From Escherichia phage vB_EcoM_WFK: a stretch of DNA of 64,000 nucleotides. The DNA lies in the sequence record MK373775.1; one strand, 5' to 3'. The first letter of the stretch is position 1, and each line of letters opens with the position of its first letter. The position numbers and the translations under genes were made by a program. Positions 2,896 through 41,659 of the stretch are shown here, one piece after another. Below the pieces are notes generated by a model. The model saw only the letters and a program-made list of their open reading frames with translations, was not told the DNA's origin and made no database searches.

Positions 2896-2924
2896 TGCTT
2901 TAACGTTAAAATACATAACCTTAT

Positions 2925-2954
2925 GGGAGACTTCGGTCTCCCATTTTTGGTTTT
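2925..2954 (+). terminator. Rho-independent terminator after gene 23 (GGGAGAC-UUCG-GUCUCCC hairpin followed by a T-run)
   Basis: Perfect 7-bp stem with a UUCG tetraloop followed by ATTTTTGGTTTT. Confidence 0.6.
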
Positions 2955-3222
2955 ATTTCTGTGCAATTTCGATGTAAGTTTTCAAAATATTTTGCCAATT
3001 AGGCATACCTTCTTGGGCATATGCCGGAGAACCATCTTTGTTTTTGAATGATGCAAGTTTATCAGTGGCCCAATAACCTTTAGCTCGAGCTTCAGAATCA
3101 ACTTTCATCCATACTTTGTTGAAGGCATTACCATTAACTTTTGCACCATATTTTTCTACTAACTTAACTGCTTCAGCTTCCAGAACTTTTAAAGTATCTC
3201 GTAAGAAACGTGCTTTAGTCAT
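2953..3222 (-). CDS. Hypothetical 89-aa protein on the opposite strand between genes 23 and 24 (the position T4 uses for segD)
   Basis: ORF with its own upstream early-type promoter (3251..3283); no recognisable motif. Confidence 0.4.
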   Translation of the reverse strand: MTKARFLRDTLKVLEAEAVKLVEKYGAKVNGNAFNKVWMKVDSEARAKGYWATDKLASFKNKDGSPAYAQEGMPNWQNILKTYIEIAQK

Positions 3223-3296: not shown

Positions 3297-3323
3297 ATCT
3301 ATATCACATAAGGAAAAAATGCA

Positions 3324-4607
3324 ATGAGTAAAATCCAAAAATTATTGCGTGAATCTACAACGTCTACTAGCAACTCAATTGGTCGCCCAAATCTCGTTGC
3401 TTTGACTCGCGCTACGACTAAATTAATATATTCTGACATTGTAGCAACACAAAGAACTAATCAACCTGTTGCTGCTTTTTATGGTATCAAATATCTTAAC
3501 CCAGATAACGAATTCACATTTAAAACTGGCGCTACTTATGCTGGTGAAGCTGGATACGTAGACCGAGAAAAAATTACTGAGCTCACAGAAGAATCAAAAG
3601 TCACACTAAATAAAGGCGATTTTTTCAAATATAATAATATCGTCTATAAAGTGTTAGAAGATACACCATTTGCAGATATTCAAGAAAGTGATCTAGAATT
3701 AGCTCTTCAGATTGCAGTCGTTCATTTAAAGGTACGGTTATTTTCAGATGCAGCGGTAACAAGCAAATTTGAAAGCTCTGATAGCGAAATTTCTGATGCA
3801 AGATTCCAGATTAATAAATGGCAAACTTCAGTCAAATCTCGTAAACTTAAAACTGGTCTCACGGTTGAATTAGCGCAAGATTTGGAAGCGAATGGATTTG
3901 ATGCCCCTAACTTCTTAGAAGATTTGCTTGCTACTGAAATGGCAGATGAAATTAATAAAGATATTCTTCAGTCTTTAATTACTGTATCGAAACGTTATAA
4001 AGTTACTGGAATTACTGACACCGGATTTATTGACTTGAGCTATGCATCCGCTCCAGAAGCAGGTCGTTCGTTATATCGAATGGTGTGTGAAATGGTATCA
4101 CACATCCAAAAAGAGACAACTTATACTGCAACGTTTTGTGTAGCCTCAGCTCGTGCAGCTGCTATTCTTGCTGCTTCCGGTTGGTTAAAACATAAGCCAG
4201 AAGATGACAAGTATCTTTCACAAAATGCTTATGGATTCTTGGCAAATGGATTACCTCTTTACTGCGATACCAACAGCCCGTTAGATTATGTTATTGTGGG
4301 TGTTGTAGAAAATCTCGGCGAAAAAGAAATTGTAGGGTCCATCTTTTATGCTCCATACACTGAAGGAGTGGATTTAGATGACCCGGAACATGTCGGTGCA
4401 TTTAAAGTTGTAGTTGATCCGGAAAGCTTGCAACCGTCTATTGGATTATTGGTTAGATATGCTTTATCAGCAAATCCTTACACAGTAGCAAAAGATGAAA
4501 AAGAAGCGAGAGTAATTGATGGCGGGGACATGGATAAAATGGCGGGACGTTCAGACTTGTCTGTTTTACTCGGTGTTAAATTGCCTAAAATTATTATAGA
4601 TGAATAA
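3324..4607 (+). CDS. 24: Capsid vertex protein gp24
   Basis: 427 aa; strong similarity to T4 gp24 and paralogous to gp23. Confidence 0.95.
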   Translation: MSKIQKLLRESTTSTSNSIGRPNLVALTRATTKLIYSDIVATQRTNQPVAAFYGIKYLNPDNEFTFKTGATYAGEAGYVDREKITELTEESKVTLNKGDFFKYNNIVYKVLEDTPFADIQESDLELALQIAVVHLKVRLFSDAAVTSKFESSDSEISDARFQINKWQTSVKSRKLKTGLTVELAQDLEANGFDAPNFLEDLLATEMADEINKDILQSLITVSKRYKVTGITDTGFIDLSYASAPEAGRSLYRMVCEMVSHIQKETTYTATFCVASARAAAILAASGWLKHKPEDDKYLSQNAYGFLANGLPLYCDTNSPLDYVIVGVVENLGEKEIVGSIFYAPYTEGVDLDDPEHVGAFKVVVDPESLQPSIGLLVRYALSANPYTVAKDEKEARVIDGGDMDKMAGRSDLSVLLGVKLPKIIIDE

Positions 4608-4643
4608 ACAAAAAAAAAGGGACCGTAAGGTCCCTTTTTTTCG
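4608..4643. terminator. Bidirectional terminator between convergent genes 24 and rnlB (A-run, GGGACC-GUAA-GGUCCC hairpin, T-run)
   Basis: AAAAAAAAA, a perfect 6-bp hairpin, then TTTTTTT; works as hairpin plus U-run on both strands. Confidence 0.65.
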
Positions 4644-5642
4644 TTATGATACTAATTCAATCCATGCAGGACGCAGAACATCTTGCACCATTCGGACTAA
4701 TTCTTTCTTAACAAGATTCGGATTATCAGATGATGTTAATACAATACCTTCACGAGAAGTTTCTTCCAGAATATCTTGAACAGTCAATCCCATCACTTTG
4801 CCAAAAGATTTTGGCGTTACAGCCCCAATCTTAGAAATAACATTATTAACACGATTTAATGTAACATAACAAGCTAGAACATCAAGCAAGTTTTTGTCAA
4901 TTTCGGTTAATGGAACCTGAGTTTTAATAGGCTTATCAGACTTTTTCTTTTCACTGAATTTAGAGTTCTTGCACTTAATAGCTACACGAGTACCGTTTGG
5001 CAGCCATTTAGGGAAACAAGGCTTCAGAACATAACCTTCTGCCGTATTATCGCCAATAACATTAGCATCAAATACACAATTATTTGCTTCGACAAGGTCT
5101 TCTGACGCAGTAGCATTATAAGCGGCTAAGACGGAATCAAGGTCATTTGGAATCATGATAAGAGAATCAAATGTTCCACGACCAAGCATTGGTGCCATTT
5201 TAAAACCGAATTCATTACAGAAATCTTGCATTTCGTAATCGGTCAAATACGTATTATCACCACTTTCTGTATTGATAAGGATATCGAACACATAAAAATC
5301 TTTTTCACCGTAGTCAACACCTTTCTGGATTCCACCACCAGCAAATTCACCGAATACTTGATATGATACGGCTCGAGCTGTGTACATGAATTCCTGAACG
5401 GCTTTAATAGCTTTATCATACTTCTTGAGTACGATTTCATAACCATAAAAATCTTCTGCTGGAAGAATAGGGCCTGTGCGCTTGGCGCATGTGACGTTGC
5501 CACGTTCAATTATTAACGAGAAGTTGGTCCCATGGATTTTCTCACGTGCTACCCAAACACCAGTAGTCAAACCATTAGTGTAGAGTTTTTCAATAAACTT
5601 AGAGTTGTAGTGGTTTTCAAGACTGCTGTATTTCTTAAACAT
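4644..5642 (-). CDS. rnlB: RNA ligase 2 (Rnl2)
   Basis: 332 aa; KIHGTN nucleotidyltransferase lysine motif near the N-terminus; collinear similarity to T4 Rnl2. Confidence 0.95.
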
Positions 5643-5761
5643 AAATCACCATTATAAATAATAATATCAAAATAATTAGCAGAGACTCTATCTCTGACCG
5701 GATGTTTAATTTGAATGGATAGAACCTAGATTCATTATACCATCAAAAAATGTAAAGCATA

Positions 5762-6013
5762 CTAGAACTTGATTTCTATCCAGTGCCCATCACGCTGGTC
5801 GTGATTAATTTTGTACTGAAAGCCGTTATCACGAAGCCATTGACCGACTTGTTCAGTTATAGTTAAATCGTTCTTTGACGGGTAGTACGTGAATTGTGTC
5901 TGGCCTTTATCAGCGGCTTTCTCTGCTATCACAGAGAAGTTAGTAATAAAATCACTCAACAAATTAGCTTTAGCGGCCAGAGCCCTTTCTCTTAATTCCT
6001 GTGCAAAACTCAT
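5762..6013 (-). CDS. Hypothetical protein (position of T4 24.2)
   Basis: 83-aa ORF, synteny only. Confidence 0.45.
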   Translation of the reverse strand: MSFAQELRERALAAKANLLSDFITNFSVIAEKAADKGQTQFTYYPSKNDLTITEQVGQWLRDNGFQYKINHDQRDGHWIEIKF

Positions 6014-6210
6014 TTCTTCACCTTTTTGTTAATCAAACGTTTACGGTATACAACTTTTTCTTTTGCTTTAAACTTTGACCGAGCTGTCTCGGCTTTAGTC
6101 CATAGTAATCCAACTTCTTTAGGTTGTAAACCAATTTTTTGAGCAATTTCTACGAATGAAAATCCCGCCTCATGTAATGTATAAACTTCAACTTCAGCTC
6201 TCATAATCAA
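6010..6210 (-). CDS. Hypothetical small basic protein (position of T4 24.3)
   Basis: 66-aa ORF with a 4-nt overlap to the downstream gene; Lys/Arg-rich C-terminus. Confidence 0.45.
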   Translation of the reverse strand: MIMRAEVEVYTLHEAGFSFVEIAQKIGLQPKEVGLLWTKAETARSKFKAKEKVVYRKRLINKKVKK

Positions 6211-6284
6211 TCCCGTATTATTTGGTTTGTGCCATTATATACATCAATCTCAAGATGTGTTTTGTATGCTTTAAAAACGAAGAA

Positions 6285-6300
6285 AGGGGCCGAAGCCCCT
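6285..6300 (-). terminator. UUCG-tetraloop hairpin with T-run downstream of hoc (minus strand)
   Basis: Minus strand reads AGGGGC-UUCG-GCCCCU followed by TTCTTCGTTTTT. Confidence 0.5.
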
Positions 6301-6303
6301 TGA

Positions 6304-6798
6304 TTATGGATATGTATAGATGATACCAGTTTCCAAAGCAGTTTTATGGATGATGTATCCATTACGTGATTCTTGAACATCAACTTCTGGATAGTCTTTC
6401 ATCATCTTCTGAAGCGTATAACGATGCAAGTAATACTTACTATCTGGATCTTCAGTTTTCCAATCTTTACCTTCTTCAGTCATTTTTTGGATTTCATCCA
6501 TAACCCACCAACCGCACCAGATGTAAGCTGAAGTACGATGTGGAAGAGGATGAACATAAGGTAATTCACCTTCTGGAACTGTATTTGTTGCAACTACTTT
6601 AATAGTCTTTTGACCGGCAGGTCCTTTTAGTACATAACTAAAAGTTGCTTCAGCTCCATCTTGCGGAACATCATCTACAGACCAAGCATATGTAATAGTT
6701 CCACCTCCAGTTTCACCACCGGGAGTAGCAGTAAACTGCTTAGTCTCATCTATAACTCCAGTAGGTGTTTTAGGAGTTATATCAACTGTAAAAGCCAT
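6304..6798 (-). CDS. hoc: Head outer capsid protein Hoc, short form (one Ig-like domain plus the capsid-binding domain)
   Basis: 164 aa; the N-terminal ~75 aa and C-terminal ~85 aa match T4 Hoc domain 1 and the capsid-binding domain; the middle Ig domains are missing. Confidence 0.8.
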   Translation of the reverse strand: MAFTVDITPKTPTGVIDETKQFTATPGGETGGGTITYAWSVDDVPQDGAEATFSYVLKGPAGQKTIKVVATNTVPEGELPYVHPLPHRTSAYIWCGWWVMDEIQKMTEEGKDWKTEDPDSKYYLHRYTLQKMMKDYPEVDVQESRNGYIIHKTALETGIIYTYP

Positions 6799-6807
6799 AA
6801 GTTATCC

Positions 6808-7476
6808 TTATTTTAATGTTACGAAAGAAGAATTACGAGTTTCACGAATTAGAACTGATCCATCGCGATTAATATAATAAATTAAGCTAAATAATGTTTG
6901 GTGAGCAGAAGCGTGCACAAAACTGGTTGGGCGAGATTTCCAATCTGGGGTTTCGGCTATCCATTGATAAATCCACCAAGGAACAGTAACATATCCTGGG
7001 CCTTTGCCTAATTTAATGAGTGTAGGACTAAAATTTTCAGGCAGAACAAATTTTACTTCTTTATTTACCTCTGGATCAGGCTCTTTTTCAGATTCAACAA
7101 CCTGAGTAATTGCTTCTTCGAATTTATCATGGTCGAATTCTTTTTCTTGTTCGACAACTTCTAATACTTCAACTTGTTCTGTTGGAGAATCAAACAACAG
7201 AATAGCTTCTTCTTTAACTTCTTCGTTGGTGAAATTAACACCGTCCACATCATCTGCGGCAGTAATTAAATCGGTGATAGATAATCCATCGGTTTCAGGT
7301 AATGGTTCATCAGCCAGTGCGTTAAGAGCTTCTTCGATATCAATAACAATATTATCGAATGATTTTGTTTTCTTAACACTAATGCCAAATTGTTTCGCAT
7401 ATTCGAACAGTTTAGCTTTGGCTTCCTTTTTATCAGAAAGAGCACGTAACTCTTCAATATAGTCTTTATCGATCAT
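6808..7476 (-). CDS. inh: Inh-like protein (inhibitor of prohead protease), acidic
   Basis: 222 aa, highly acidic, in the hoc-inh position; T4 Inh is of similar size. Confidence 0.5.
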   Translation of the reverse strand: MIDKDYIEELRALSDKKEAKAKLFEYAKQFGISVKKTKSFDNIVIDIEEALNALADEPLPETDGLSITDLITAADDVDGVNFTNEEVKEEAILLFDSPTEQVEVLEVVEQEKEFDHDKFEEAITQVVESEKEPDPEVNKEVKFVLPENFSPTLIKLGKGPGYVTVPWWIYQWIAETPDWKSRPTSFVHASAHQTLFSLIYYINRDGSVLIRETRNSSFVTLK

Positions 7477-7489
7477 GGTATTTCCTCAT

Positions 7490-7497
7490 TATAAATA
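7490..7497 (+). promoter_or_regulatory. T4-type late promoter (TATAAATA) upstream of uvsW
   Basis: Exact TATAAATA about 30 nt upstream of the uvsW ATG. Confidence 0.45.
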
Positions 7498-7526
7498 TAA
7501 CTATATTTATTACATGGTAATTTGAC

Positions 7527-9041
7527 ATGACTGACATTAAAGTACATTTTTATGATTTTAGTCACGTGCGCATTGAATGCGACGAAAGTACGTTTTACGA
7601 ACTTCGTGACTTTTTTAGCTTTGAAGCTGACGGGTATAAATTTAACCCAAAATATCGCTATGGGAACTGGGATGGTAGAATTCGACTTTTAGATTACAAC
7701 CGTTTGTTACCATATGGACTTGTAGGACAAATAAAAAAGTTCTGTAGCAATATGAGTTATTCTGTATGGATTGACCCTAAAATCTTTGAGACCGAAGACC
7801 TTACCAGAGAAGATTTTGACGCATGGCTTTCTAAACAAGAAATTTATTCAGGCAACGCCAAAATCGAACCACATTGGTATCAAAAAGATGCAGTATATGA
7901 AGGACTAGTTAATCGTCGTCGAATTTTAAACCTTCCGACATCAGCAGGTAAATCACTAATCCAAGCACTTTTAGCTCGATATTATCTAGAGAATTATGAA
8001 GGTAAAATTCTCATTATCGTCCCTACAACAGCATTGACAACCCAGATGGCTAATGATTTTGTTGATTATCGCTTGTTTAGTCATTCGATGATTAAGAAAA
8101 TTGGCGGTGGTGCTGATAAAGCAGACAAATCTAAAAACGACGCTCCAATTATTGTTGGCACATGGCAAACAGTAGTTAAGCAGCCTAAAGAATGGTTCTC
8201 TCAGTTCGGTATGATGATGAACGATGAATGCCACTTAGCAACAGGCAAAAGTATTTCTTCAATCATCGCAGGATTAAATAATTGTATGTTTAAATTCGGT
8301 TTATCTGGCTCATTAAGAGACGGAAAAGCCAATGTAATGCAGTACGTAGGTATGTTCGGCGAAATCTTCCGTCCTGTTAGCACGTCTAAATTAATGGAAG
8401 ACGGACAGGTAACTGAGCTTAAGATTAACAGTATTTTCCTTCGTTATCCGGACGAATTCACCGTTAAATTAAAAGGTAAAACATACCAAGAAGAAGTTAA
8501 AATTATTACCGGACTAAAACGACGTACAAAGTGGATTGCTCAACTTTCAGTCAAATTGGCTAAGAAAGACGAGAACGCCTTTGTAATGTTTAAACACGTT
8601 ACACATGGTAAAGAAATATTTGAAGCTATTAAAGAGCTTGGATACGAAAAAGTTTATTACGTATCGGGTGAAGTTGATACTGAAACACGTAACGCGCTTA
8701 AAGTCATGGCAGAAAATGGTAAAGGCATTATTATTGTCGCATCATATGGAGTATTCTCTACTGGTATTTCAGTCAAGAATCTTCATCATGTTATTTTCGC
8801 TCATGGTGTTAAATCAAAAATTATCGTACTTCAAACCGTAGGTCGCGTACTTCGTAAGCATGGTTCTAAAGCTGTTGCTACAGTTTGGGATCTCATCGAT
8901 GACGCAGGTGTAAAACCTAAATCATTAAATACTAAAAAGAAGTATACTCATCTTAATTACTTGTTAAAACACGGTATTGATCGTATCCAACGTTACGCTG
9001 ATGAGAAATTTAACTATGTAATGAAAACAATTAATTTATAA
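7527..9041 (+). CDS. uvsW: UvsW DNA/RNA helicase (SF2, recombination-repair)
   Basis: 504 aa; N-terminus nearly identical to T4 UvsW; Walker A LPTSAGKS and a DECH box. Confidence 0.95.
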   Translation: MTDIKVHFYDFSHVRIECDESTFYELRDFFSFEADGYKFNPKYRYGNWDGRIRLLDYNRLLPYGLVGQIKKFCSNMSYSVWIDPKIFETEDLTREDFDAWLSKQEIYSGNAKIEPHWYQKDAVYEGLVNRRRILNLPTSAGKSLIQALLARYYLENYEGKILIIVPTTALTTQMANDFVDYRLFSHSMIKKIGGGADKADKSKNDAPIIVGTWQTVVKQPKEWFSQFGMMMNDECHLATGKSISSIIAGLNNCMFKFGLSGSLRDGKANVMQYVGMFGEIFRPVSTSKLMEDGQVTELKINSIFLRYPDEFTVKLKGKTYQEEVKIITGLKRRTKWIAQLSVKLAKKDENAFVMFKHVTHGKEIFEAIKELGYEKVYYVSGEVDTETRNALKVMAENGKGIIIVASYGVFSTGISVKNLHHVIFAHGVKSKIIVLQTVGRVLRKHGSKAVATVWDLIDDAGVKPKSLNTKKKYTHLNYLLKHGIDRIQRYADEKFNYVMKTINL

Positions 9042-9066
9042 GGGCTTCGGCCCTTAGGAGATAAAA

Positions 9067-9300
9067 ATGGTACTTGAATTTAAACAATTTTTATACGAAG
9101 CATCTATTGACGAATTCATGGGTAAAATTGCTAGTTGTCATACCTTAGAAGGGCTTGAAGAATTGGAAGCTTATTATAAGAAACGTATAAAAGAAACGGA
9201 ATTAAAAGATACAGATGATATTTCTGTCAGGGATGCCTTAGCAGGTAAGCGTGCCGAACTTGAAGGCGACGATGATGAGGATGAGGAAGAAGACTTCTAA
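9067..9300 (+). CDS. uvsW.1: UvsW.1 small acidic protein
   Basis: 77 aa directly downstream of uvsW, acidic C-terminal tail; size and position as in T4. Confidence 0.75.
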   Translation: MVLEFKQFLYEASIDEFMGKIASCHTLEGLEELEAYYKKRIKETELKDTDDISVRDALAGKRAELEGDDDEDEEEDF

Positions 9301-11441: not shown

Positions 11442-12194
11442 ATGGCTAATATAATTCGTTGTAAATTACCGGATGGTGTTCATCGTTTTAAGCCGTTCAC
11501 CGTGGCGGATTATAGAGACTTTTTACTAGTTAGAAATGATATCGAACATCGTTCGCCACAAGAACAAAAAGAAATAATTGCCGATCTGATTGATGATTAT
11601 TTTGGCGAGTACCCTAAAACATGGCAACCATTTATATTCCTGCAAGTTTTTGCAGGCTCTATAGGCAAAACAAAAGTTCCCGTTATTTTCACTTGCCCTA
11701 AATGCTCTAAAGAAAAAACTGCGCCATTTGAGATATATCAAAAAGAACTAGTCGAACCTGAACTTGATGTTGCTGGTATAAAAATACGTTTTTCTTTCCC
11801 TGAAAAGTTTTATGACAACAAAGCATTAATGATAAGTGAAAACATAAAAGAAATATATTATAATGATGAATGGTACCCATGGAATGATTTGACTGAAGAG
11901 AACCAAATCCAAGTAATAGAAGCAATAGACATTGACTCACTCGAGAAGGTTATTGCTTCTATGAACCCTATTAATTTGACCCTTAGATTAGGTTGTTGTG
12001 AACGTCATGTTAAAACATATACTGATATCTTAGAGGTTTTTAAATTGTTAGTTAACCCTGATGAGATTTTTACATTCTATCAGATAAACCATTCACTAGT
12101 AAAGAGTCAATACACATTGGATTCTATTATGCAAATGATTCCTGTTGAACGTGGTATTGCTTTAACATTAGTAGAAAAGGACCATAAAAAATGA
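11442..12194 (+). CDS. 51: Baseplate hub assembly catalyst gp51
   Basis: 250 aa; position and size as T4 gp51. Confidence 0.8.
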
Positions 12195-13363
12195 CAGTAT
12201 TCCAACGTCCAGGATATCCTAACTTAAGCGTTAAATTATACCAAGATTATTCAGCTTGGCAAGAAAATAGATACGTTGAACTCGCGGCAACAATAACAAC
12301 TTTAACCATGCGAGATTCGTTATATGGAAGAAATGAAGGGATTCTTCAATTTTATGACACTAAAAACATCCACACTAAAATGGATGGTAGACAGATAGTC
12401 CAAATCTCTGTTTCAAATTCAAACACACCTCTCCAAGTTAGAACTCGAATTTACGGATGCAGACATTATTCTGTGTCTGTGGACTCAAAAGGTGACAATA
12501 TTATTGCAATTGAGCTTGGAACAATACATTCTATAGAGAACCTTAAATTTGGGCGTCCATTCTTCCCGGATGCAGGCGAATCTATACGTGAAATGTTAGG
12601 TGTCATATACAAAGACCGTGCGTTAATTACTCCGCCAATAAACACTATTAATGCTTATGTTCCTGATATCCCTTGGACAAGCACATTTGATGATTATTTG
12701 GCATATGTCAGAGAATTAGGACTTGCTACAGCGAGTGATAAGTTCGTATTCGTATGGCAAGATATTTTAGGCGTAAACATGATTGACTACGATACTCTTA
12801 TTGGTCAGGAAGGCATTAAGATGATTGTAGGTGAGCCAAATACTGTAGGTCAGTATATTCAAGAGCTTGAGTATCCATTAGTATGGGATTTTACCTGGAT
12901 GACTAAAGCCAACCAATTTACAAGAGACCCTATTAAAAACGCCACGATATTCGCTCATTCATTTTTAGATACATCTATTCCGGTTATTGTTACAGGCGAT
13001 GGTGATAATGCTATTCTTGTGTCAAGATCCGGTGGATATTCCGAAATGACCTATCGTAATGGATTTGAAGAAGCAAGTCGTCTTCAGACAATGGCTCAAT
13101 ATGACGGATATGCTAAATGCACTACTACAGGCAATTTTAACATAACGCCTGCTACTAAAATTATATTTGTTGACCAAAAGAACCAATTCAAATCCGAATT
13201 TTACGTAGATGAAGTTATTCATGAGTTATCAAATAACAACTCACAAACTCATCTGTACATGTTTACCAACTCAATGGTGTTAGAACCTGTTAACCCAGTT
13301 AAGGTTAAAAATGAACTTAAATCTGATTCTACCTCTAAAGAAAATAATTCTACCACAGTCTAA
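12191..13363 (+). CDS. 27: Baseplate hub protein gp27
   Basis: 390 aa; ATGA start/stop overlap with 51; size as T4 gp27. Confidence 0.88.
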
Positions 13364-32557: not shown

Positions 32558-33691
<1,134 letters not shown>

Positions 33692-33737
33692 TCAGTTAGT
33701 TTTTTTAAATTGTACCACAATCCTTGTGGTATGTAAA

Positions 33738-34148
33738 CTACTTTTTCTTATGTTGGATATTCCAAGGCGGGTTGAACTTTTTGATAAAAAGTGGTTCTTC
33801 AAGGTCCATTGTTGCGATGGTCATTGAACCAAGTTCGTTGGTGACTGAAAGGTCAAAACATTGGCGGGCCCAGAATTCAACCTTTTTGCCTTGCATTAAG
33901 GCATCCAAAATCATAAGTGATTTTCTTGAATCTGAAGTCTGGTCTTTTCGATTTATGGCTGTTCGATAATAGTTAATGCGTTTCTTTAAATTCTTGGTTT
34001 TACCAATATACACGAGTTCGTCATCTATAGCAATAGCATATATGACATTTTTCTTATTAGGGACATCAACTGTTTTAATTGTTGCATCTTCTAATAGCTC
34101 CAATTCTGTATATTTAATAAAGGAATATTCGGCGGCGATATCTTTCAT
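33738..34148 (-). CDS. denA: Endonuclease II (GIY-YIG family)
   Basis: 136 aa; GIY-YIG-type motif VYIGKT...KRINYY; near-identical to T4 DenA. Confidence 0.92.
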   Translation of the reverse strand: MKDIAAEYSFIKYTELELLEDATIKTVDVPNKKNVIYAIAIDDELVYIGKTKNLKKRINYYRTAINRKDQTSDSRKSLMILDALMQGKKVEFWARQCFDLSVTNELGSMTIATMDLEEPLFIKKFNPPWNIQHKKK

Positions 34149-34174
34149 AATAAAGTGGGACCGAAGTCCCGTCC

Positions 34175-34677
34175 TTAGAAATATTTTTTGTATGAATTGA
34201 TTACATTTTGGTCTACATCATTATCAATTTGTGCGACAAGATAAGAACTGATTTCAACTTCCTGAGGAGCTGCTTGAACTAAATCAGAGTTCAGATATTC
34301 ACGAATCCAAGGATACGGATGCTTGGTCGGAGCATCCGTAATTGGACATGGCAAACCACACTGTTTCATACGAGACACAGTCAAGTAATCAACAAAAGCA
34401 CACATACTCTGCGTATTGATACCTGGACATGTACCATCTTTAAAGAGGTGTGCAGCCCATTCCTTCTCTTGACTATTTACTTCCATAAAAATGTCAACTG
34501 CTTCTTGTTCACATTCTTTAGCAATTTGAACCCACTCATCACCGTCAGTACCAGATTGAAGTTGACGGATAATGTACTGAGTACCCTTGAGATGGAGTTG
34601 TTCGTCACGAGCAATGAACTTCATAATCTTTGCATTGCCTTCCATAATTTCCATATTCTTGTGGAAGTTAAAGGTAC
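34175..34677 (-). CDS. nrdB: Ribonucleotide reductase beta subunit NrdB, exon 2
   Basis: Reading frame continues the NrdB sequence (...TFNFHKNMEIMEGNAKI...); 3' splice site inferred after the intron-terminal G. Confidence 0.8.
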
Positions 34678-35768
34678 CGTTATGTTCGATTGAGCTCGCT
34701 AATTCTCAACCCGTTCTCTTATGAACTGCTACATATTACTATGCAGACCAGACTATATCACAATCCCAGAGGGATTCTCCCCATTTCGAGTCGCTTGACC
34801 CTACGTCCGAAGACTAGTCGTTGAACCTTGCTTTGCAATTGTCGCCGTGCCATCGTTTATATGTTGATGGTGATAAATCTTTCTTATCACAATATGGACA
34901 ATTCAATTGAATTCTATTTGGATTTAATTTACATCTGTCATTATGTTTTAGATAAAATCCAGGACCTTTACCAATGTGACCACAAAAATCACACGTGATT
35001 TCTTTTTGTGCAGGATGGGTCCCGTTCTTAACCATTTCTAATGTTTTTGCTGATGTTCTTTTCTTATGGTCTTCTGATAAGAAATGATGTGAACCGTCAT
35101 TTACCCGTTTTGATTGAGTTTCTGACTGCATTTTACCACCGCAAAATACATGAGTACCTTCTTTTATAGCTGCAATATTGCGTTCTTTAACTTTTGCAAT
35201 ATGCTCAGCTTGTTGAAAATTATGTATACCTAATGCAACTCTATTTAAATTAGATTTACGCTGTATTTCACCGTCTAAAAGATGAAATGTACCATTTTCT
35301 ATCTTAGATTTAATAGAGGCAATATTTTTAGCTCGTACTTCAGGGATATTAAAAATCTGGATTTCTCTAGATTTTGCGGCTTTAGAAGCTAATTCAGAAA
35401 TTTCTTCAGGAGAATATTTCATTCTAAGCTTTATAGCATGACAAGCCTGGTAATCTTTTTGAGCTAAATGTATATCATAATGTTCCTGTATAGAAAGGCA
35501 CATCAAATTATCTAAATCATTATTTTCACGGTTACCGTCTTTATGATGGATTTCATATGTTCTTCCATCAGAATCTTTAGGTATAGGTCCGTTAGCATCT
35601 ATCCAAATTTTTCTATAGTTCAATTGTGCATCCTCTTAAAAGTATAATCATATTTATATTATACTAATTAAAGGTGCAAGCAAAACCTTGGCTGCTAGTT
35701 TTCCTATAAAGGACTTTCCAGCAATTAAAGGAGTTTTCGATAAACGTTACCGTTTAAAGGCGCATTTT
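34678..35768 (-). mobile_element. Group I self-splicing intron in nrdB (about 1.09 kb) carrying a homing endonuclease ORF
   Basis: NrdB frame is interrupted by a stop directly after FYVSFA; joining exon 1 (ends in U) to exon 2 restores ...SFACTFNF..., which aligns without gaps to bacterial NrdB; boundaries are approximate. Confidence 0.7.
34814..35623 (-). CDS. Intron-encoded HNH homing endonuclease, I-TevIII-like, full length
   Basis: 269 aa inside the nrdB intron; HNH motif EIHHKDGNRENNDLDNL; C-terminal zinc-finger-like CxxC pairs. Confidence 0.8.
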   Translation of the reverse strand: MNYRKIWIDANGPIPKDSDGRTYEIHHKDGNRENNDLDNLMCLSIQEHYDIHLAQKDYQACHAIKLRMKYSPEEISELASKAAKSREIQIFNIPEVRAKNIASIKSKIENGTFHLLDGEIQRKSNLNRVALGIHNFQQAEHIAKVKERNIAAIKEGTHVFCGGKMQSETQSKRVNDGSHHFLSEDHKKRTSAKTLEMVKNGTHPAQKEITCDFCGHIGKGPGFYLKHNDRCKLNPNRIQLNCPYCDKKDLSPSTYKRWHGDNCKARFND

Positions 35769-36444
35769 ACGCAAAAGATACATAAAAACGAATAGCTTCT
35801 AAGGCATTAATAACGTGCAAACAGAGGTAAAGAGATTTCATTAGCTCACGCTTCCAATATGTCTCATGCTCAATAGCATCTTCAATAACGTCTTCGTCTG
35901 CATTAATTTCTTTTTGGTATTCGATATCGGCTTTAGCGTTTTCCCAATAACGAGTTTTAACCAGAACATCATCGTAATATTTACCTATTGATTCAGCTCG
36001 TTTCATGATTGCTTCGTCTAATACAATCTCATCAAATACCTTAGATGGGTCTGTATAAAGATTTCGCATAATATGAGTGTACGAACGAGAGTGAATAGTT
36101 TCACTGAATGTCCATGTTGCAACCCATGTATCTAATGAAGGGTCGGAAATCAGTGCCATAAGTACCGCAGATGGGGCCCTGCCTTGGATAGAATCTAATA
36201 ATGATTGATACTTAAGATTGTTTGTAAAGATGTCCTGTTGGAACTGAGGAAGCTTATTGAACTGCGCAGAGTCCAACATCAAGTTTACCTCTTCTGGGCG
36301 CCAGAAAAATGACAATTGCTTTTCAATAAGTTCTTCAAAAACTTTATGTCGCTGAATATCATAACGTGCGAGGCCAAGACCAGAACCAAAGAACATTGGT
36401 TCATTCAAAACATCGACTTGTTGTGTGTTAAAAACTGTACTCAT
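35769..36444 (-). CDS. nrdB: Ribonucleotide reductase beta subunit NrdB, exon 1
   Basis: 225 aa of N-terminal NrdB including the diiron/tyrosyl-radical region; 5' splice site inferred after the U following FYVSFA. Confidence 0.8.
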
Positions 36445-36499
36445 TATATTTTCTCACTTAGTTATTAACTCATCCATGAGTAAATTATAATCAAAAGTC

Positions 36500-38764
36500 T
36501 TAAAGCTTACAAGCAGAACAATCTTCAGCTTTAGGTGTTTCTAATTCATAGTCATCTGTACCTGACCCATCACGAGTGTTATGATAGTAGAGGTTTTTTC
36601 CGCCAAAGTACCAGAAGTAAAGCAGATCGTCAAGCATTACCGACATTGGCACTTTACCTTTCTCAAATACTGCAGGGTCATAGTAAGTATTAGCAGAAGC
36701 AGATTGGCACACCCATTTCAACATGATAGCAACTTGGGTCAAATAAGGTTTATTACCTTTCTTAGCAAGTTTCCACGCGTAGTCGTAAAGACTCATGTTA
36801 TGTTCTATATTAGGAACAACCTGTCGGAAGTTGCCTTCTTTAGATTCTTTAATACTTACTGGACCGCGTGGGGGCTCAATCCCGTTTGTAGAGTTCGATA
36901 CTTGACTGCTTGACTCACAAGGCATGAGTGCAGACAACGTTGAGTTACGAATTCCATGTTCTTTGAGTTCAGCTCGAAGTTCTTCCCAATCACATACGTA
37001 GTTCGGGGCTGCGATTTGGTCAATCTTTTTATTGTACCAGTCGATAGGTAATTCGCCTCTAGACCATTTAGTGTCTGAATAATACTCGCAACATCCTTTT
37101 TCTTTGGCGAGTTTGATTGAAGCTTTGATAAGGCCATATTGCAATCTCTCAAACAATTCATGAGTCAAATCGTTAGCGTCTTCATATGAAGCGAAGTTAG
37201 AAGCTAACCATGCAGCATAGTTCGTAACACCAACACCAAGATTACGACGCTTTTTGGCTTTTAAAGCTTCTGGAACCGGATAATCTTGATAGTCTAACAG
37301 GTTATCAAGTGCACGTACTTGTACTTCAGCAAGTTCATTAATTTTATCTTGGTCTTGCCAATCAAATTTATCTAACACGAATGCAGATAACGTGCATAAA
37401 CCAATTTCAGCATCAGGACCATTCACATCATTAGTTGGAATAGCGATTTCACAACATAAGTTACTCTGACGAATTGGAGCTTTTTCACGAATAAACGGAG
37501 TGTAGTTATTCGTGTTATCAACAAACTGTGGATAAATTCGAGCAGTACCAGAGCGTTCAGTCATGAACAATTCAAAGAGTTCTAGTGCTTTGATTCTTTT
37601 CTTTCTGATTGTTGGGTCTTTTTCAGCTTTCTCATAAAGCTCACGGAATTTATCTTGATCTTCAAAGAACGAGTAGTATAGTTCGCCTGACATTTCGTGA
37701 GGGCTAAATAAAGTAATATAATCATTTTTACCAAGGCGTTCCATCATAAGGTCATTAATCTGAATTCCGTAGTCCATATGTCGAATACGGTTTTCATCCA
37801 CGCCTTTGTTATTTTTCAGAACTAATAGGTTCTCTACTTCTAAGTGCCACATCGGATAATACGCTGTAGCAGCACCACCACGAATACCACCTTGAGAACA
37901 AGATTTTACTGCAGTTTGGAAATGTTTCCAGAATGGAATAACACCCGTATGTCGAACTTCACCCATACCGATCTTAGAACCTTCTGCACGAAGCATACCA
38001 ACGTTGATACCAATACCAGCTCGTTTAGAAATATATTCAATAATTGATGCTGAAGTTTTGTTAATAGATTTTAACGAATCACCGGCTTCAATAACTACAC
38101 AACTAGAGAACTGGCGAGTTGGAGTACGAGCACCTGCCATAATTGGGGTTGGCAATGAAACTTGATGAGTAGAAACGGCATTATAAAAACGAATAATATG
38201 TTTCAAACGGTCATGAGTTTCGTCTTGGTGTAAGGCCATGCCAATAGCCATGATAGCAAACTGGGGAGTTTCATAAATCTTCCCAGTTGTTTTATCTTTA
38301 ACTAGATATTTTTCTTTAAGCTGCATAGCACCAGCATAAGTCAGGTCAAAGTCTCGTTCATGTTTAATCTGTGAATCGAGATAAATGATTTCTTCTGCTG
38401 AATATTGAGACAACAGCTCAGGGTCATATTTGCCTTCATTAACACAATAAGAAATATGGTCGATAAAAGCAGGCGGTTCAAACTGCCCATATACATCTTT
38501 ACGAAGTGCAAACATTAGCCCTTTGGCGGCGACATACTGATAATCAGGTTCTTCGACAGAAATCGAGTTAGCTGCAACTTTAATACAAATCTTCTGGATA
38601 TCTTTGGTGCTCATCCCGTCGACAAGATGGGTCTTAATTTCTTCATACAATTCATATGGGTCAATTTGTGTTCCTTCACATTGCCAAGTTAAGACTTGAA
38701 TAATTTTCTGTGCATCAAAATTTTGGGATACACCTGAATTTTTCACTACTTTAAAATTATACAT
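36500..38764 (-). CDS. nrdA: Ribonucleotide reductase alpha subunit NrdA
   Basis: 754 aa, same length as T4 NrdA; class I RNR large subunit with a C-terminal cysteine pair. Confidence 0.97.
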   Translation of the reverse strand: MYNFKVVKNSGVSQNFDAQKIIQVLTWQCEGTQIDPYELYEEIKTHLVDGMSTKDIQKICIKVAANSISVEEPDYQYVAAKGLMFALRKDVYGQFEPPAFIDHISYCVNEGKYDPELLSQYSAEEIIYLDSQIKHERDFDLTYAGAMQLKEKYLVKDKTTGKIYETPQFAIMAIGMALHQDETHDRLKHIIRFYNAVSTHQVSLPTPIMAGARTPTRQFSSCVVIEAGDSLKSINKTSASIIEYISKRAGIGINVGMLRAEGSKIGMGEVRHTGVIPFWKHFQTAVKSCSQGGIRGGAATAYYPMWHLEVENLLVLKNNKGVDENRIRHMDYGIQINDLMMERLGKNDYITLFSPHEMSGELYYSFFEDQDKFRELYEKAEKDPTIRKKRIKALELFELFMTERSGTARIYPQFVDNTNNYTPFIREKAPIRQSNLCCEIAIPTNDVNGPDAEIGLCTLSAFVLDKFDWQDQDKINELAEVQVRALDNLLDYQDYPVPEALKAKKRRNLGVGVTNYAAWLASNFASYEDANDLTHELFERLQYGLIKASIKLAKEKGCCEYYSDTKWSRGELPIDWYNKKIDQIAAPNYVCDWEELRAELKEHGIRNSTLSALMPCESSSQVSNSTNGIEPPRGPVSIKESKEGNFRQVVPNIEHNMSLYDYAWKLAKKGNKPYLTQVAIMLKWVCQSASANTYYDPAVFEKGKVPMSVMLDDLLYFWYFGGKNLYYHNTRDGSGTDDYELETPKAEDCSACKL

Positions 38765-39404
38765 AATAATTCCATGTTGGATAATTTGATGATTTTAGCC
38801 GGCGTCTAACCGTTTGGGTGCTCATAGATAAAACTATTGACGCTTCATTTAATGTATCATATATTACGTCGTTTATAATTACTTTCTTTGCAAATGGATT
38901 CTTGGCTCCTATCATAGCATTAGAAATAGCTTGCTTAGTTGATTCTTTTAATGGGACTCCTTTAGAAATTTTTGTTTTAATTTTTATATTGTATTGTCCG
39001 CGTTTTTTACCTAATAAAGAATTTCGTATCTTTTCTTTAGTCTCTTCAGATTTAACATGTCCTAGTTTGGAACGAGATATTTTATCTTTTGTTTTTTGGT
39101 CTAATTTTCGCCCTTTAAGCAAATCAACCATTTTTGCTCTAGCCCATCCAAATTCTTTATTATTTCTAGAACTCATTAAATTAACCGCGGTTGCTAAACC
39201 TAAATTGTTCGGATATATTTTTAATAAAAGAAGATGAGCCAAATAATGTTCTGAATATGTTAATTTAACTAGATTGTATGACTCATTGGTGCCACCTAAA
39301 CATTTTGGGATTATATGATGCCATTCACCATCTATATCTTCAAAATTTCTTTCTTTATTTACCAAGTTTTTATATATTTTTAAATAATCCATAGTATAAT
39401 CCAC
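38757..39404 (-). CDS. Free-standing HNH homing endonuclease (Mob/I-HmuI-like) with C-terminal NUMOD-like repeats
   Basis: 215 aa; HNH motif EWHHIIPKCLGGTNESYNLV...HYLAH; repeated K-x-K-I-S/R-x-S-L-xGK motifs; 3' end overlaps the nrdA start by 8 nt. Confidence 0.75.
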   Translation of the reverse strand: MDYTMDYLKIYKNLVNKERNFEDIDGEWHHIIPKCLGGTNESYNLVKLTYSEHYLAHLLLLKIYPNNLGLATAVNLMSSRNNKEFGWARAKMVDLLKGRKLDQKTKDKISRSKLGHVKSEETKEKIRNSLLGKKRGQYNIKIKTKISKGVPLKESTKQAISNAMIGAKNPFAKKVIINDVIYDTLNEASIVLSMSTQTVRRRLKSSNYPTWNYYV

Positions 39405-39467
39405 TTTGTAGTATCAACGGGATAGTATTTATCCCGTTAATTTATTATACACTTTTAAACTGAAGCG

Positions 39468-39722
39468 TTAATTATCCACAGCAATAATTTCTTCATATTC
39501 TTTAGGTGTCAAGACTGTGATATTGAAATAAACCAACGGTTCTTTTTCTATACCGAATCCACCACAAAATTCACGATATTCATAAATTCGTTCATGTGAA
39601 TAGCAAATGAATCGTTCACCTTTAACTGTGATTTCACTATTCGGTGAAGGGATATCTAGTTCGGTAGGATTTTTCATTTCAAAAATTGTGGTGCCATATG
39701 AATTAATAAAACGTAAAATCAT
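39468..39722 (-). CDS. Hypothetical protein (nrdA.1 position)
   Basis: 84-aa ORF immediately downstream of td. Confidence 0.4.
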   Translation of the reverse strand: MILRFINSYGTTIFEMKNPTELDIPSPNSEITVKGERFICYSHERIYEYREFCGGFGIEKEPLVYFNITVLTPKEYEEIIAVDN

Positions 39723-40583
39723 TTATACCGCCATTTTAGCTTTGATAGTTGGATGAGATTCATAATTTTTAAGAACGAAATCAGAATGTGTCATAGTTCC
39801 AGTAACCCAGTCCATTTGGATTTTTGTAGGCCAATTCTCAAAATTACTAGGCCAATTAATTTCAAGAGAACATAACTCTTTAGGTTCACGACGAAGAACT
39901 TCTTTGCATTGTTCTATATGATTGCTGTAGATATGCGTGTTGCCGCCTGAGAACACTAAATCACCTGGGATAAGATTACACATCTTAGCCACAATATGCG
40001 TCAAGGCAGCGTACGAGGCAATGTTGAATGGCAATCCCAAGAAAACATCTACACTGCGTTGATACCATTGTAAATCAAGATGCCCATTACGCACATTAAA
40101 TTGATAGAACATATGACAAGGAGGAAGAGCCATTTGGTCAATTTCGGCCGGGTTCCATGCAGAAACTATTTGACGACGATCATTAGGAAGAGCTTTAATA
40201 CGGTCGATAGTTTTGTCCAATTGGTCTACACCACCAAAATCACGCCATTGCTTACCATAAATAGGACCAAGTTCGCCGCTATGATACCCAAGGTCTTTTG
40301 CCTGATTTTCATAGTTGTCGTCCCAAATAGTTTTACCTTGAATAAGACTACCATGAGTACGAATACGCAAATCATTAACATTGGTAGAACCAGACATGAA
40401 CCACAGTAACTCGGCAATACAAGCTTTCCACGCTAATTTCTTAGTTGTTACCGCAGGGAATCCTTTAGTCAGATCCCAACGTAATTTAGTTCCGAACAGG
40501 GCAATTGTTCCTGTGCCTGTACGGTCGTCTGTTTCGTAGCCATTTTCTAGGATATCATTAATCAGGTATTGGTATTGTTTCAT
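39723..40583 (-). CDS. td: Thymidylate synthase, uninterrupted (no td intron)
   Basis: 286 aa continuous ORF, same length as the spliced T4 Td protein. Confidence 0.96.
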   Translation of the reverse strand: MKQYQYLINDILENGYETDDRTGTGTIALFGTKLRWDLTKGFPAVTTKKLAWKACIAELLWFMSGSTNVNDLRIRTHGSLIQGKTIWDDNYENQAKDLGYHSGELGPIYGKQWRDFGGVDQLDKTIDRIKALPNDRRQIVSAWNPAEIDQMALPPCHMFYQFNVRNGHLDLQWYQRSVDVFLGLPFNIASYAALTHIVAKMCNLIPGDLVFSGGNTHIYSNHIEQCKEVLRREPKELCSLEINWPSNFENWPTKIQMDWVTGTMTHSDFVLKNYESHPTIKAKMAV

Positions 40584-41167
40584 TTATATACGCTCTCAGT
40601 AATTTCGGTGAGTTCATCGATTCTGTAGTAATGAGATTCTACCATAGAACGTTGAAGCATAATATCTTGGACGAAATCTTTATCAAGTTGAACATCGGAA
40701 TTAACACGACATTTCTTAATGATTTTAGTCATCACGATTTCATCGGCATAAGGCAGTGCTTGTTTTAATAGAGCAGGACCGCCGATAACAGATACATTAA
40801 CATGTTCAGTAGAAAGTTTAAACGGTACATCAGTTGCAGGGCTAAACAGGTTAATTTCACCACCTGTTACCAAGGTAATAAATTCAGATTGGGTGATATA
40901 GAACCGTGCAAGTTCATCAGTTTTAGTCCTAGGCAGTTTTCTGGCCATATCAGTGACAACCACATGAGTACGATCTGGGAGTAGACGAGGTAATGATGCA
41001 AAAGTCTTAGCACCCATAACCATTACAGTGTTTTTAGTGCGAGCAACAAAGTTACTCATATCTTGTTTGATATGCTTCCATGGAAGTCCATCACCTAATC
41101 CAAAAGCATATTCCAGTTTATCATCAACTGTTTTAGATGGTGCGCATGCGAATACTAATTTAAGCAT
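40580..41167 (-). CDS. frd: Dihydrofolate reductase
   Basis: 195 aa; 4-nt overlap with td; size and position as T4 Frd. Confidence 0.88.
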   Translation of the reverse strand: MLKLVFACAPSKTVDDKLEYAFGLGDGLPWKHIKQDMSNFVARTKNTVMVMGAKTFASLPRLLPDRTHVVVTDMARKLPRTKTDELARFYITQSEFITLVTGGEINLFSPATDVPFKLSTEHVNVSVIGGPALLKQALPYADEIVMTKIIKKCRVNSDVQLDKDFVQDIMLQRSMVESHYYRIDELTEITESVYK

Positions 41168-41410
41168 TTTTAAGTCCTTTAATAACTTTTTGGATTTGTG
41201 ATTTAGACGAAACTAGTTCTGTCTGAATTTCCAAACCATCGGTTTGGTCAAATGTTGTAACACAAACACGAGGTTTTGTTGTGTATCATCCAGACAAATC
41301 AAATGCATCACCAATGAATTCGGCCAAATCCGGATGGTCTAAATTAACTGAAGTATAAACTTCATATCCGACATCAGCGCCTTGAGAGTATTCAACAACA
41401 ACATTCATAA

Positions 41411-41659
41411 TTATTTCCTCAGATTTTTCTTAACAACTTTCCAATCGGCTTTGAACATTTCAACATCAGAGTGGCAAATCCAGAATCCTGCACTTTCACC
41501 ATCTTCGTAGAGTGGACATCCATCACATTCTTCGTTCCAACCCATTTCGCGTAAAGCTTCTTCAGCTTGTTCAAGGAGTTCAGCATCTTTACCAACGATG
41601 TTGAAGTACCATTTACCTCTAACTTCAGAATCTTTGATGCTCTGTCGTTGCAATCTCAT
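41411..41659 (-). CDS. Hypothetical protein (frd.x position); start set to the internal ATG
   Basis: The track ORF begins with GTG; the internal ATG gives 82 aa. Confidence 0.4.
   Translation of the reverse strand: MRLQRQSIKDSEVRGKWYFNIVGKDAELLEQAEEALREMGWNEECDGCPLYEDGESAGFWICHSDVEMFKADWKVVKKNLRK

Follow-up and report, generated by a model that had tools for sequence, protein, structure and literature searches.

The DNA analysed here is a 64,000-nucleotide stretch of Escherichia phage vB_EcoM_WFK (MK373775.1), hereafter the window, and the element under study is an open reading frame (ORF) on its minus strand, immediately upstream of nrdA, that encodes a predicted HNH nuclease. Over its whole 64 kb, the window matches Escherichia phage vB_EcoM_WFL6982 (MK373774.1, Straboviridae, Mosigvirus) at 100% identity. 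With a probability of roughly 0.75, we consider that a Mob-family free-standing homing endonuclease gene (HEG), which joins an HNH domain to three NUMOD3 repeats and an I-TevI/Seg-type helix-turn-helix (HTH), entered the empty, RB69-type nrdA.2–nrdA site in a Mosigvirus ancestor and brought ten foreign nrdA codons with it. This reading is built on the identity and architecture of the gene, its intact catalytic residues, its presence/absence polymorphism, the exact boundaries of the exchanged segment, the absence of linkage to single-nucleotide polymorphisms (SNPs) in the flanks, and the low diversity of the insert.

Locus and coordinates

Every gene of the nrdA region is carried on the minus strand, in the transcription-direction order frd, td (without an intron), an 84-residue DUF5496 gene, the HNH ORF, nrdA and nrdB. 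The ORF finder delimited the HNH ORF as 38757–39404 (minus), with 215 residues from a GTG codon, and nrdA as 36500–38764 (minus). The GTG at 39404 adds four codons to a 211-residue form (38757–39392) that starts with the ATG at 39392. Because the GenBank coding sequence QBQ76990.1 also starts at this ATG, and because the consensus start of 69 homologues, MNYxKIY, aligns with the MDYLKIY of the ORF, the ATG is likelier to be the true start. The ORF of the first-pass annotation, which was made from the DNA alone, thus stands, whereas its 215-residue start does not. Residue numbers below are counted from the ATG at 39392.

The same annotation was right to place the ORF just upstream of nrdA, but not to call its upstream neighbour nrdA.1. 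That neighbour (39468–39722, 84 residues, DUF5496) is a homologue of NrdA.2, matches T4 NrdA.2, and is labelled nrdA.2 in RB69. The claimed 8-nucleotide overlap with the nrdA initiation codon follows from the ORF coordinates (38757–38764), the overlap consisting of the nrdA ATG and then the TAA of the HNH ORF. The nrdA–nrdB gap of the window is 55 nucleotides long and holds no gene. The features are as follows, with the evidence in brackets.

38757–39392, minus: free-standing HNH homing endonuclease gene (ORF list; GenBank coding sequence QBQ76990.1; PHROG 655, E = 1.7e-45; 33% identity to T4 MobE)
39222–39332, minus: HNH catalytic core, residues 21–57, DGEWHHIIPKCLGGTNESYNLVKLTYSEHYLAH (invariant residues; AlphaFold2 topology; profile alignment)
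38904–39101, minus: three NUMOD3-like helical DNA-binding repeats, residues 98–163 (Pfam NUMOD3; model helices)
38766–38915, minus: C-terminal I-TevI/Seg-type HTH DNA-binding domain, residues 160–209
38735–39415, minus: whole allele-specific segment of ~681 bp, comprising the ORF, its 5' leader and the recoded nrdA 5' end (mogra alignment; SNP table)
38735–38764, minus: carrier form of the first ten nrdA codons, proposed immunity determinant (mogra alignment; SNP table)
38757–38764, minus: 8-nucleotide overlap ATGTATAA, with the nrdA start inside the last codons and stop of the ORF (ORF coordinates)
39416–39440, minus: conserved RNA hairpin at the left insertion edge, loop GATAAATACTAT (folding z; mogra alignment)
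39444–39471, minus: promoter-like site predating the insertion, GCTTCA-N11-TATAAT at 39466–39444 (promoter scan)
36500–38764, minus: nrdA, 754 residues, downstream and presumed target gene (Pfam ATP-cone and ribonucleotide reductase large subunit N and C domains)
39468–39722, minus: nrdA.2 homologue, 84 residues, DUF5496 (Pfam; RB69 annotation; T4 NrdA.2 match)

Domain architecture of the encoded protein

The protein matches PHROG 655, "homing endonuclease", with an E value of 1.7e-45 and is therefore not the product of a chance ORF. Pfam returned NUMOD3 above its cutoff (25.4 vs 20.4 bits) and I-TevI_DNA-bd marginally below it (25.2 vs 27 bits). Since the Pfam HNH models, including PF01844, gave no match to the protein, the HNH assignment was checked separately with a family profile built from 69 of the 254 homologues returned by the database search. 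Residues H25, H26, P29, G34, N40, E48, H49, H53, L55 and L56 occupy invariant columns of this alignment, so that the HNH motif claimed in the first-pass annotation proved real despite the silence of Pfam, its H25, H26, N40, H49 and H53 being retained on careful alignment. The profile also matched solved HNH motifs, namely those of McrA (6ghc, E = 0.001), a group II intron maturase (6me0, E = 0.0018) and Cas8f-HNH (8ydb, E = 0.0075), over an alignment that spans E-HH-I-P..GG...N-L-V-L....H. The AlphaFold2 model (mean predicted local distance difference test score 86.8) places the conserved residues on a beta-beta-alpha fold, with strands at residues 23–26 and 41–44 followed by a helix at 46–59.

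Downstream of this core, the NUMOD-like modules that had likewise been claimed resolve into three NUMOD3-like repeats (residues 98–111, 115–129 and 148–163), which coincide with model helices 99–109, 116–127 and 150–160 and are followed by a compact C-terminal domain. The top structural match of this domain was 1i3j_A (Foldseek probability 1.00), and cluster P0001, 98% identical to the HNH ORF, has a precomputed PF20987 match. A phmmer search of the protein against the Protein Data Bank returned nothing significant.

By BLASTP, the protein is 33% identical to T4 MobE over residues 1–166 (177-residue alignment, E = 1e-23); its N-terminus shows 48% identity to that of the Mob-like gene by which nrdA is split in AV111, and its last 110 residues show 36% identity to the C-terminal end of a GIY-YIG Seg-like gene product from phage SSE1. 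The tblastn matches include genes annotated as mobE and mobD. The Mob family is defined by an N-terminal domain homologous across MobA–E and a family-specific C-terminal domain (PMC2790892), and the HNH ORF shares that N-terminal homology, as the alignment to T4 MobE documents. The protein can thus be described as a putative Mob-family HNH nuclease joined to an I-TevI/Seg-type NUMOD3/HTH DNA-binding module, and PHROG 655, NUMOD3 and the identity to MobE bear out the Mob-type affiliation originally assigned. The architecture is not new, because many database homologues share the same Pfam combination.

Extent of the replaced segment

The junction comparison with ORF-free relatives proposed in the first-pass annotation set the insertion edges at 38735–39415, in place of 56 bp. 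Phage mogra agrees perfectly with the window as far as the final base of the hairpin at 39416–39440, after which identity resumes at GGTGTATCC, in nrdA codon 11. Between these edges, the phages with the ORF (carriers) have ~681 bp, made up of a 23-nucleotide leader, the ORF and ten altered nrdA codons (MYNFKVVKNS), and the phages without it (empty alleles) have the 56 bp TTGGAGTAATGTCTATCAACCTATACTGAGGAATATATGCAAGTAACTAAGAGCAGT, which encode MQVTKSS. Because ~681 bp of carrier sequence substitute for 56 bp of the empty allele, the event was a replacement rather than a simple insertion. Terminal repeats flanking 38735–39415 were not found, and the 64-kb window nowhere contains the empty-site sequence. 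A transposon-like element was also considered and rejected, as there are no meaningful direct or inverted repeats at 38735/39415.

The nrdA start is the same in the empty (RB69-type) and nrdA.1 (JK42) alleles, ATGCAAGTAACTAAG preceded by a GAGGA Shine-Dalgarno sequence, and that of T4 is related (ATGCAATTAATT after GAGGA). The divergent start is limited to carriers and is the derived form. Its ten codons are recoded even at conserved residues (Lys AAG to AAA, Ser AGT to TCA). The N-terminus MYNFKVVKNS occurred in exactly 11 carriers among the 1091 phage records with a tblastn match to the NrdA N-terminus, and a degenerate pattern for this carrier-type N-terminus found no match in IMG/VR.

Occurrence among relatives

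A megablast search with 38300–40000 returned 303 phage records, 11 of which cover the whole query at 97–100% identity; the rest of the close relatives listed align in two pieces, over the flanks alone. The same 11 records were recovered by tblastn with the HNH protein (98.6–100% identity, all beside nrdA), and the remaining 1064 tblastn records are below 60% identity except for one in the 60–80% band. Those of the latter that were examined lie elsewhere, next to uvsW, next to topoisomerase genes, and at the mobE and mobD positions. The carriers were isolated in Germany, Denmark, Russia, Turkey and China.

A 150-nucleotide query for the empty junction of mogra (positions 5396–5545 of the retrieved locus) matched 116 records without interruption at ≥97% identity, 89 of these at ≥99%, which gives at least 116 relatives with an empty junction, including the reference Mosigvirus RB69. 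A further ~25 records match only the nrdA part of the query. In JK42, the slot (positions 2213–2518 of the retrieved locus) is occupied by a T4-like nrdA.1 that overlaps the nrdA start by 10 nucleotides; this nrdA.1 allele has neither the promoter-like site nor the hairpin that the empty and HNH alleles share. The nrdA.2–nrdA slot thus exists in three states in Mosigvirus: empty (at least 116), with nrdA.1 (up to ~25, a count obtained by subtraction, JK42 being the single record opened), and with the HNH gene (11). The gene is accordingly far from being present at the same position in all relatives, with 11 carriers against at least 116 empty junctions. Several records already annotate it as a homing endonuclease, and a literature search found no paper characterising it; it belongs to the known T4 Mob family of free-standing homing endonucleases.

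Assortment with flanking DNA

Eight carrier and seven non-carrier loci were compared in detail. The flanks of WFL6982 are 98.5–99.5% identical to those of the non-carriers mogra, UKE1 and AV110 and 96.4–98.7% identical to those of other carriers, its closest relatives being mogra upstream (98.9%) and AV110 across nrdA (99.5%). From 39762 to 37853, WFL6982 equals mogra except for the replaced segment. In the SNP table, all fixed differences between carriers and non-carriers near the ORF fall within 38735–39415, and the flank SNPs assort independently of the ORF. Extending the test ~3 kb downstream (nrdA and nrdB exon 1) gave no fixed difference, and extending it ~2.8 kb upstream gave a single one, at 40035 beside the td intron insertion point, which is probably an alignment-edge effect. 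Among carriers, nucleotide diversity (pi) is 0.007 inside the segment vs 0.027–0.042 in the adjacent 250-nucleotide flanks, four to six times lower inside. All eight ORF copies are intact, without frameshifts or stops, and their ten variable codons (six synonymous, four nonsynonymous) include no catalytic one.

Taken together, these comparisons indicate that the segment has a common ancestor younger than the surrounding DNA and is carried on several backgrounds. Horizontal spread by homing or recombination fits this pattern, and ancestral presence with repeated loss is hard to reconcile with it. The suggestion of the first-pass annotation that a mobile gene had inserted beside a conserved gene is supported by its sporadic presence and its unlinked flanks.

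Several points weigh against the proposed entry by homing. The sample of loci compared in detail is small, and constraint could account for part of the low pi inside the insert. Long co-conversion tracts are typical of T4 homing; reduced flank diversity in carriers was sought among these loci and not found, and no such tracts are visible, so that conversion tracts were either short or erased by later recombination. Neither a donor lineage nor a closer relative of the ORF turned up by tblastn, in the database search or in IMG/VR, the next-best homologues being at most 47% identical and lying at other loci. Fold searches with the small HNH core alone gave weak, non-significant matches, for which reason the HNH assignment rests on sequence evidence. 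Finally, MobE, the nearest studied enzyme, has never displayed activity in vitro (PMC2790892).

The chief alternative is that the ORF was ancestral to Mosigvirus, was deleted in most lineages, and need not be mobile now. Presence/absence alone gives no direction, and the lack of a co-conversion signature in the carrier flanks is in keeping with such a history. However, it is the carriers alone that have a divergent nrdA start, and a simple deletion cannot convert 681 bp to an unrelated 56 bp. Moreover, no ORF remnant was found in the seven empty alleles aligned, the insert is less diverse than its flanks, and in those flanks the carriers are not one another's nearest relatives. We regard this alternative as unlikely.

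A mutual exclusion with MobE was considered and rejected: the nrdA–nrdB gap is geneless in all carriers, but also in six of the seven non-carriers examined.

Expression and nrdA translation

The promoter-like GCTTCA-N11-TATAAT (39466–39444), which we take to resemble the MotA-dependent middle promoter consensus of T4, lies upstream of the hairpin and is common to carrier and empty alleles. The hairpin (z = –4.1 for the 101-nucleotide leader) is also conserved in both, and the insertion starts at the first base after its stem; its loop agrees with the T4 late-promoter core at seven of eight positions. No promoter-like site was found on the coding strand inside the HNH ORF, so nrdA is presumably transcribed together with the ORF, which is the cistron nearest the hairpin. 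The pre-existing promoter-like site would then drive the HNH gene and nrdA together. In T4, nrdA has early, middle and late promoters upstream (PMC2790892).

At the nrdA start, pairing with the anti-Shine-Dalgarno sequence falls from –6.1 kcal/mol for the GAGGAA of the empty allele to –3.3 kcal/mol for the bare GGA of carriers. This weakening and the 8-nucleotide overlap substantiate the suggestion that the insertion re-shapes the nrdA initiation region. Because the strong Shine-Dalgarno sequence is lost and the nrdA start lies inside the last codons of the ORF, nrdA is likely to be translationally coupled to the HNH gene. The overlap mirrors that of nrdA.1 with nrdA in T4 and JK42.

These features also bear on the idea of a decaying or domesticated relic, that is, a DNA-binding protein without homing, such as a regulator of the nrdA region comparable to the autorepressor I-TevI, retained since nrdA translation depends on the ORF. 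The overlap and the weak nrdA Shine-Dalgarno sequence would select against deletion, an I-TevI-type DNA-binding domain is present, and I-TevI itself acts as a repressor (PMC2790892). Nevertheless, the catalytic residues are intact in all eight copies, none of which has a frameshift or stop, and the element sits on several flank haplotypes; decay or domestication is thus improbable.

Proposed homing, target and immunity

We propose that the gene would spread as follows. In a mixed infection, the protein would bind the conserved nrdA translation-start region of a genome without the ORF and would nick or cut it at this place, much as MobE acts on nrdB. The ORF would then be copied into the broken genome by recombination-dependent repair of the T4 type. 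Carriers would be spared, as the 56 bp with the presumed target site have been swapped for the ORF and the recoded codons. By analogy with MobE, binding and nicking or cutting of ORF-less genomes is the most likely activity of the protein. Inheritance of MobE is preferential and dependent on the HNH motif, and the enzyme nicks nrdB, its neighbour, in the 5' part; its host allele has been proposed to be protected by local polymorphism (PMC2790892).

Since only the replaced segment separates carriers from non-carriers over several kilobases, the nucleotides that tell the two apart should lie within the 56 bp that empty alleles have here. The best candidate is a stretch of ~34 bp that runs from the GAGGA Shine-Dalgarno sequence to nrdA codon 10, since it is common to the empty and nrdA.1 alleles; potential recipients show high conservation of this stretch. 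Any homing enzyme has to leave its own genome uncut, and the recoded nrdA codons of carriers resemble the local polymorphism proposed to protect mobE hosts.

A more specific version is tentative, and we would sooner bet against it than for it. The element would be a cassette equipped with a recoded nrdA 5' end of its own. In empty genomes, its enzyme would recognise or cleave nrdA at the ribosome-binding site and the first ten codons; immunity would come from the recoded codons alone, and, with the nrdA Shine-Dalgarno sequence exchanged for an 8-nucleotide overlap, nrdA expression would depend on translation of the endonuclease. If this were true, the host phage could neither silence nor cleanly delete the HNH gene.

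Alternatively, the protein could be an active site-specific nuclease that serves mainly in inter-phage competition, by marker exclusion or by cutting elsewhere in competitor genomes, and not in homing into the nrdA.2–nrdA site. Among T-even phages, marker exclusion driven by HEGs is an established phenomenon (PMC2790892). Against this, carrier-specific sequence within several kilobases occurs only at the insertion, which makes a discriminating site there the simplest, and cutting at the insertion site necessarily mobilises the ORF. Such a role in place of homing is very unlikely.

Excluded identities

The GenBank product name of the WFL6982 gene, "group I intron endonuclease", was rejected. 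It has in its favour this annotation and a weak TIGR01453 match (31.8 bits), but that match lies below the cutoff (56.05 bits) and covers only the DNA-binding part (residues 39–209). Assignment to the GIY-YIG class was also dismissed, the catalytic GIY-YIG motif being absent. The ORF is flanked by a complete gene on either side, the corresponding position in empty alleles is a spacer between genes rather than an uninterrupted gene, and an Rfam scan of 33500–41500 returned no intron family at the gathering score. The HNH ORF is thus free-standing, as first annotated, and lies between an intact nrdA.2 and nrdA; the intron-encoded alternative, the least credible of those considered, is refuted as far as sequence can tell.

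A MobE orthologue was ruled out, as the ORF lies upstream of nrdA and not between nrdA and nrdB, and its alignment to MobE stops at residue 166. A relocated mobE was rejected too, given an identity of only 33% and an I-TevI-type HTH in place of the Cys/His C-terminus of MobE. As the first-pass annotation stated, T4 has its gene on the opposite side of nrdA, where it separates nrdA from nrdB, and the low identity and different C-terminal domain favour the independent insertion that this annotation had suggested.

The nrd/td region

The nrd/td region is known as a hotspot for endonucleases (PMC2790892; PMC2988022). Among the compared loci, there are introns in td that hold I-TevI-like genes and introns in nrdB that hold I-TevIII-like genes, full or truncated, as well as MobE, Mob-like and Seg-like genes, all of which assort independently of the HNH ORF.

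In the window, nrdB is split (34175–36444, minus), with exon 1 at 35767–36444 and exon 2 at ~34175–34645. Between them lies a 269-residue HNH_3 ORF (34814–35623; PHROG 12324, "intron-like DNA endonuclease", E = 1.9e-193, full length), which is of the full-length I-TevIII type as in RB3. The T4 copy is truncated, and AV116 and AV114 have a 285-nucleotide truncated version. The Rfam gathering scan returned no group I intron model at this split. The td gene of the window (39723–40583, minus) has no intron; a td intron with a 245-residue I-TevI-like gene is present in the carriers a20 (positions 7424–9300 of the retrieved locus), NRG-P0074, AV114 and AV116 and in the non-carrier AV110, so that its distribution is independent of that of the HNH gene, at a distance of 400 bp.

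In AV111 (positions 3297–6456 of the retrieved locus), nrdA consists of two ORFs of 1425 and 990 nucleotides, split by a 236-residue Mob-like HNH gene (4276–4986), a case of "genes in pieces" like that of Aeromonas phage Aeh1, here in an E. coli Mosigvirus. Phage mogra has a MobE between nrdA and nrdB that is identical to T4 MobE at 229 of 232 residues (positions 2503–3201 of the retrieved locus), with Mosigvirus-like nrdA and flanks, and this mobE looks like a recent transfer between genera. In SSE1 (positions 11611–12294 of the retrieved locus), AV114 and AV110, the end of gene 59, which encodes the helicase loader, is overlapped by a Seg-like GIY-YIG gene. In SSE1, one phage thus combines the same DNA-binding module with two different nuclease domains, the C-terminus of its Seg-like protein being the one related to that of the HNH ORF.

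The HNH gene adds one more occupied site, the nrdA.2–nrdA slot, to this classic T-even hotspot. The general picture of homing endonucleases is unchanged by it, and it is a fairly ordinary example. Its noteworthy points are that natural variation narrows the presumed target and immunity determinant to ~56 bp around the nrdA start, because nothing else differs consistently over several kilobases, and that translation of nrdA appears tied to the element. As few Mob-family enzymes have a mapped site, the gene would be a convenient system for the questions of how an HNH nick leads to homing, how self-immunity originates, and how a selfish gene becomes entangled with host-gene expression.

Comparison with known systems

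T4 MobE is close to the HNH ORF in several respects: both have a homologous N-terminal HNH domain with a NUMOD-like linker, are free-standing in the nrd cluster, and overlap an nrd neighbour. As is presumed for the HNH ORF, MobE depends on the nrdA promoters and probably targets the 5' part of its downstream nrd gene, its host allele being protected, as proposed, by local polymorphism (PMC2790892). It lies downstream of nrdA, whereas the HNH ORF lies upstream. The HNH ORF is accordingly the upstream partner in its overlap, with nrdA likely to be the coupled gene; the reverse applies to MobE, which is coupled to nrdA. In further contrast to T4 mobE, the promoter scan flagged no U-tract terminator on the coding strand of the HNH ORF, and while mobE contains promoters for nrdB, none for nrdA was found inside the ORF.

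I-HmuI of Bacillus phage SPO1, an HNH nicking enzyme (PDB 1U3E), is intron-encoded and has no phmmer-detectable similarity to the HNH ORF. The I-TevI/Seg enzymes share the NUMOD3 repeats and the C-terminal HTH (Foldseek match to 1i3j_A), but have a GIY-YIG catalytic domain in place of HNH, and TIGR01453 stays below its cutoff. Lastly, Aeh1 MobE and the Mob-like gene of AV111 are, like the HNH ORF, Mob-family HEGs tied to nrdA, the AV111 protein having the 48% identical N-terminus described above. Those two genes split nrdA, whereas the HNH ORF leaves it whole and alters only its first ten codons and ribosome-binding site.

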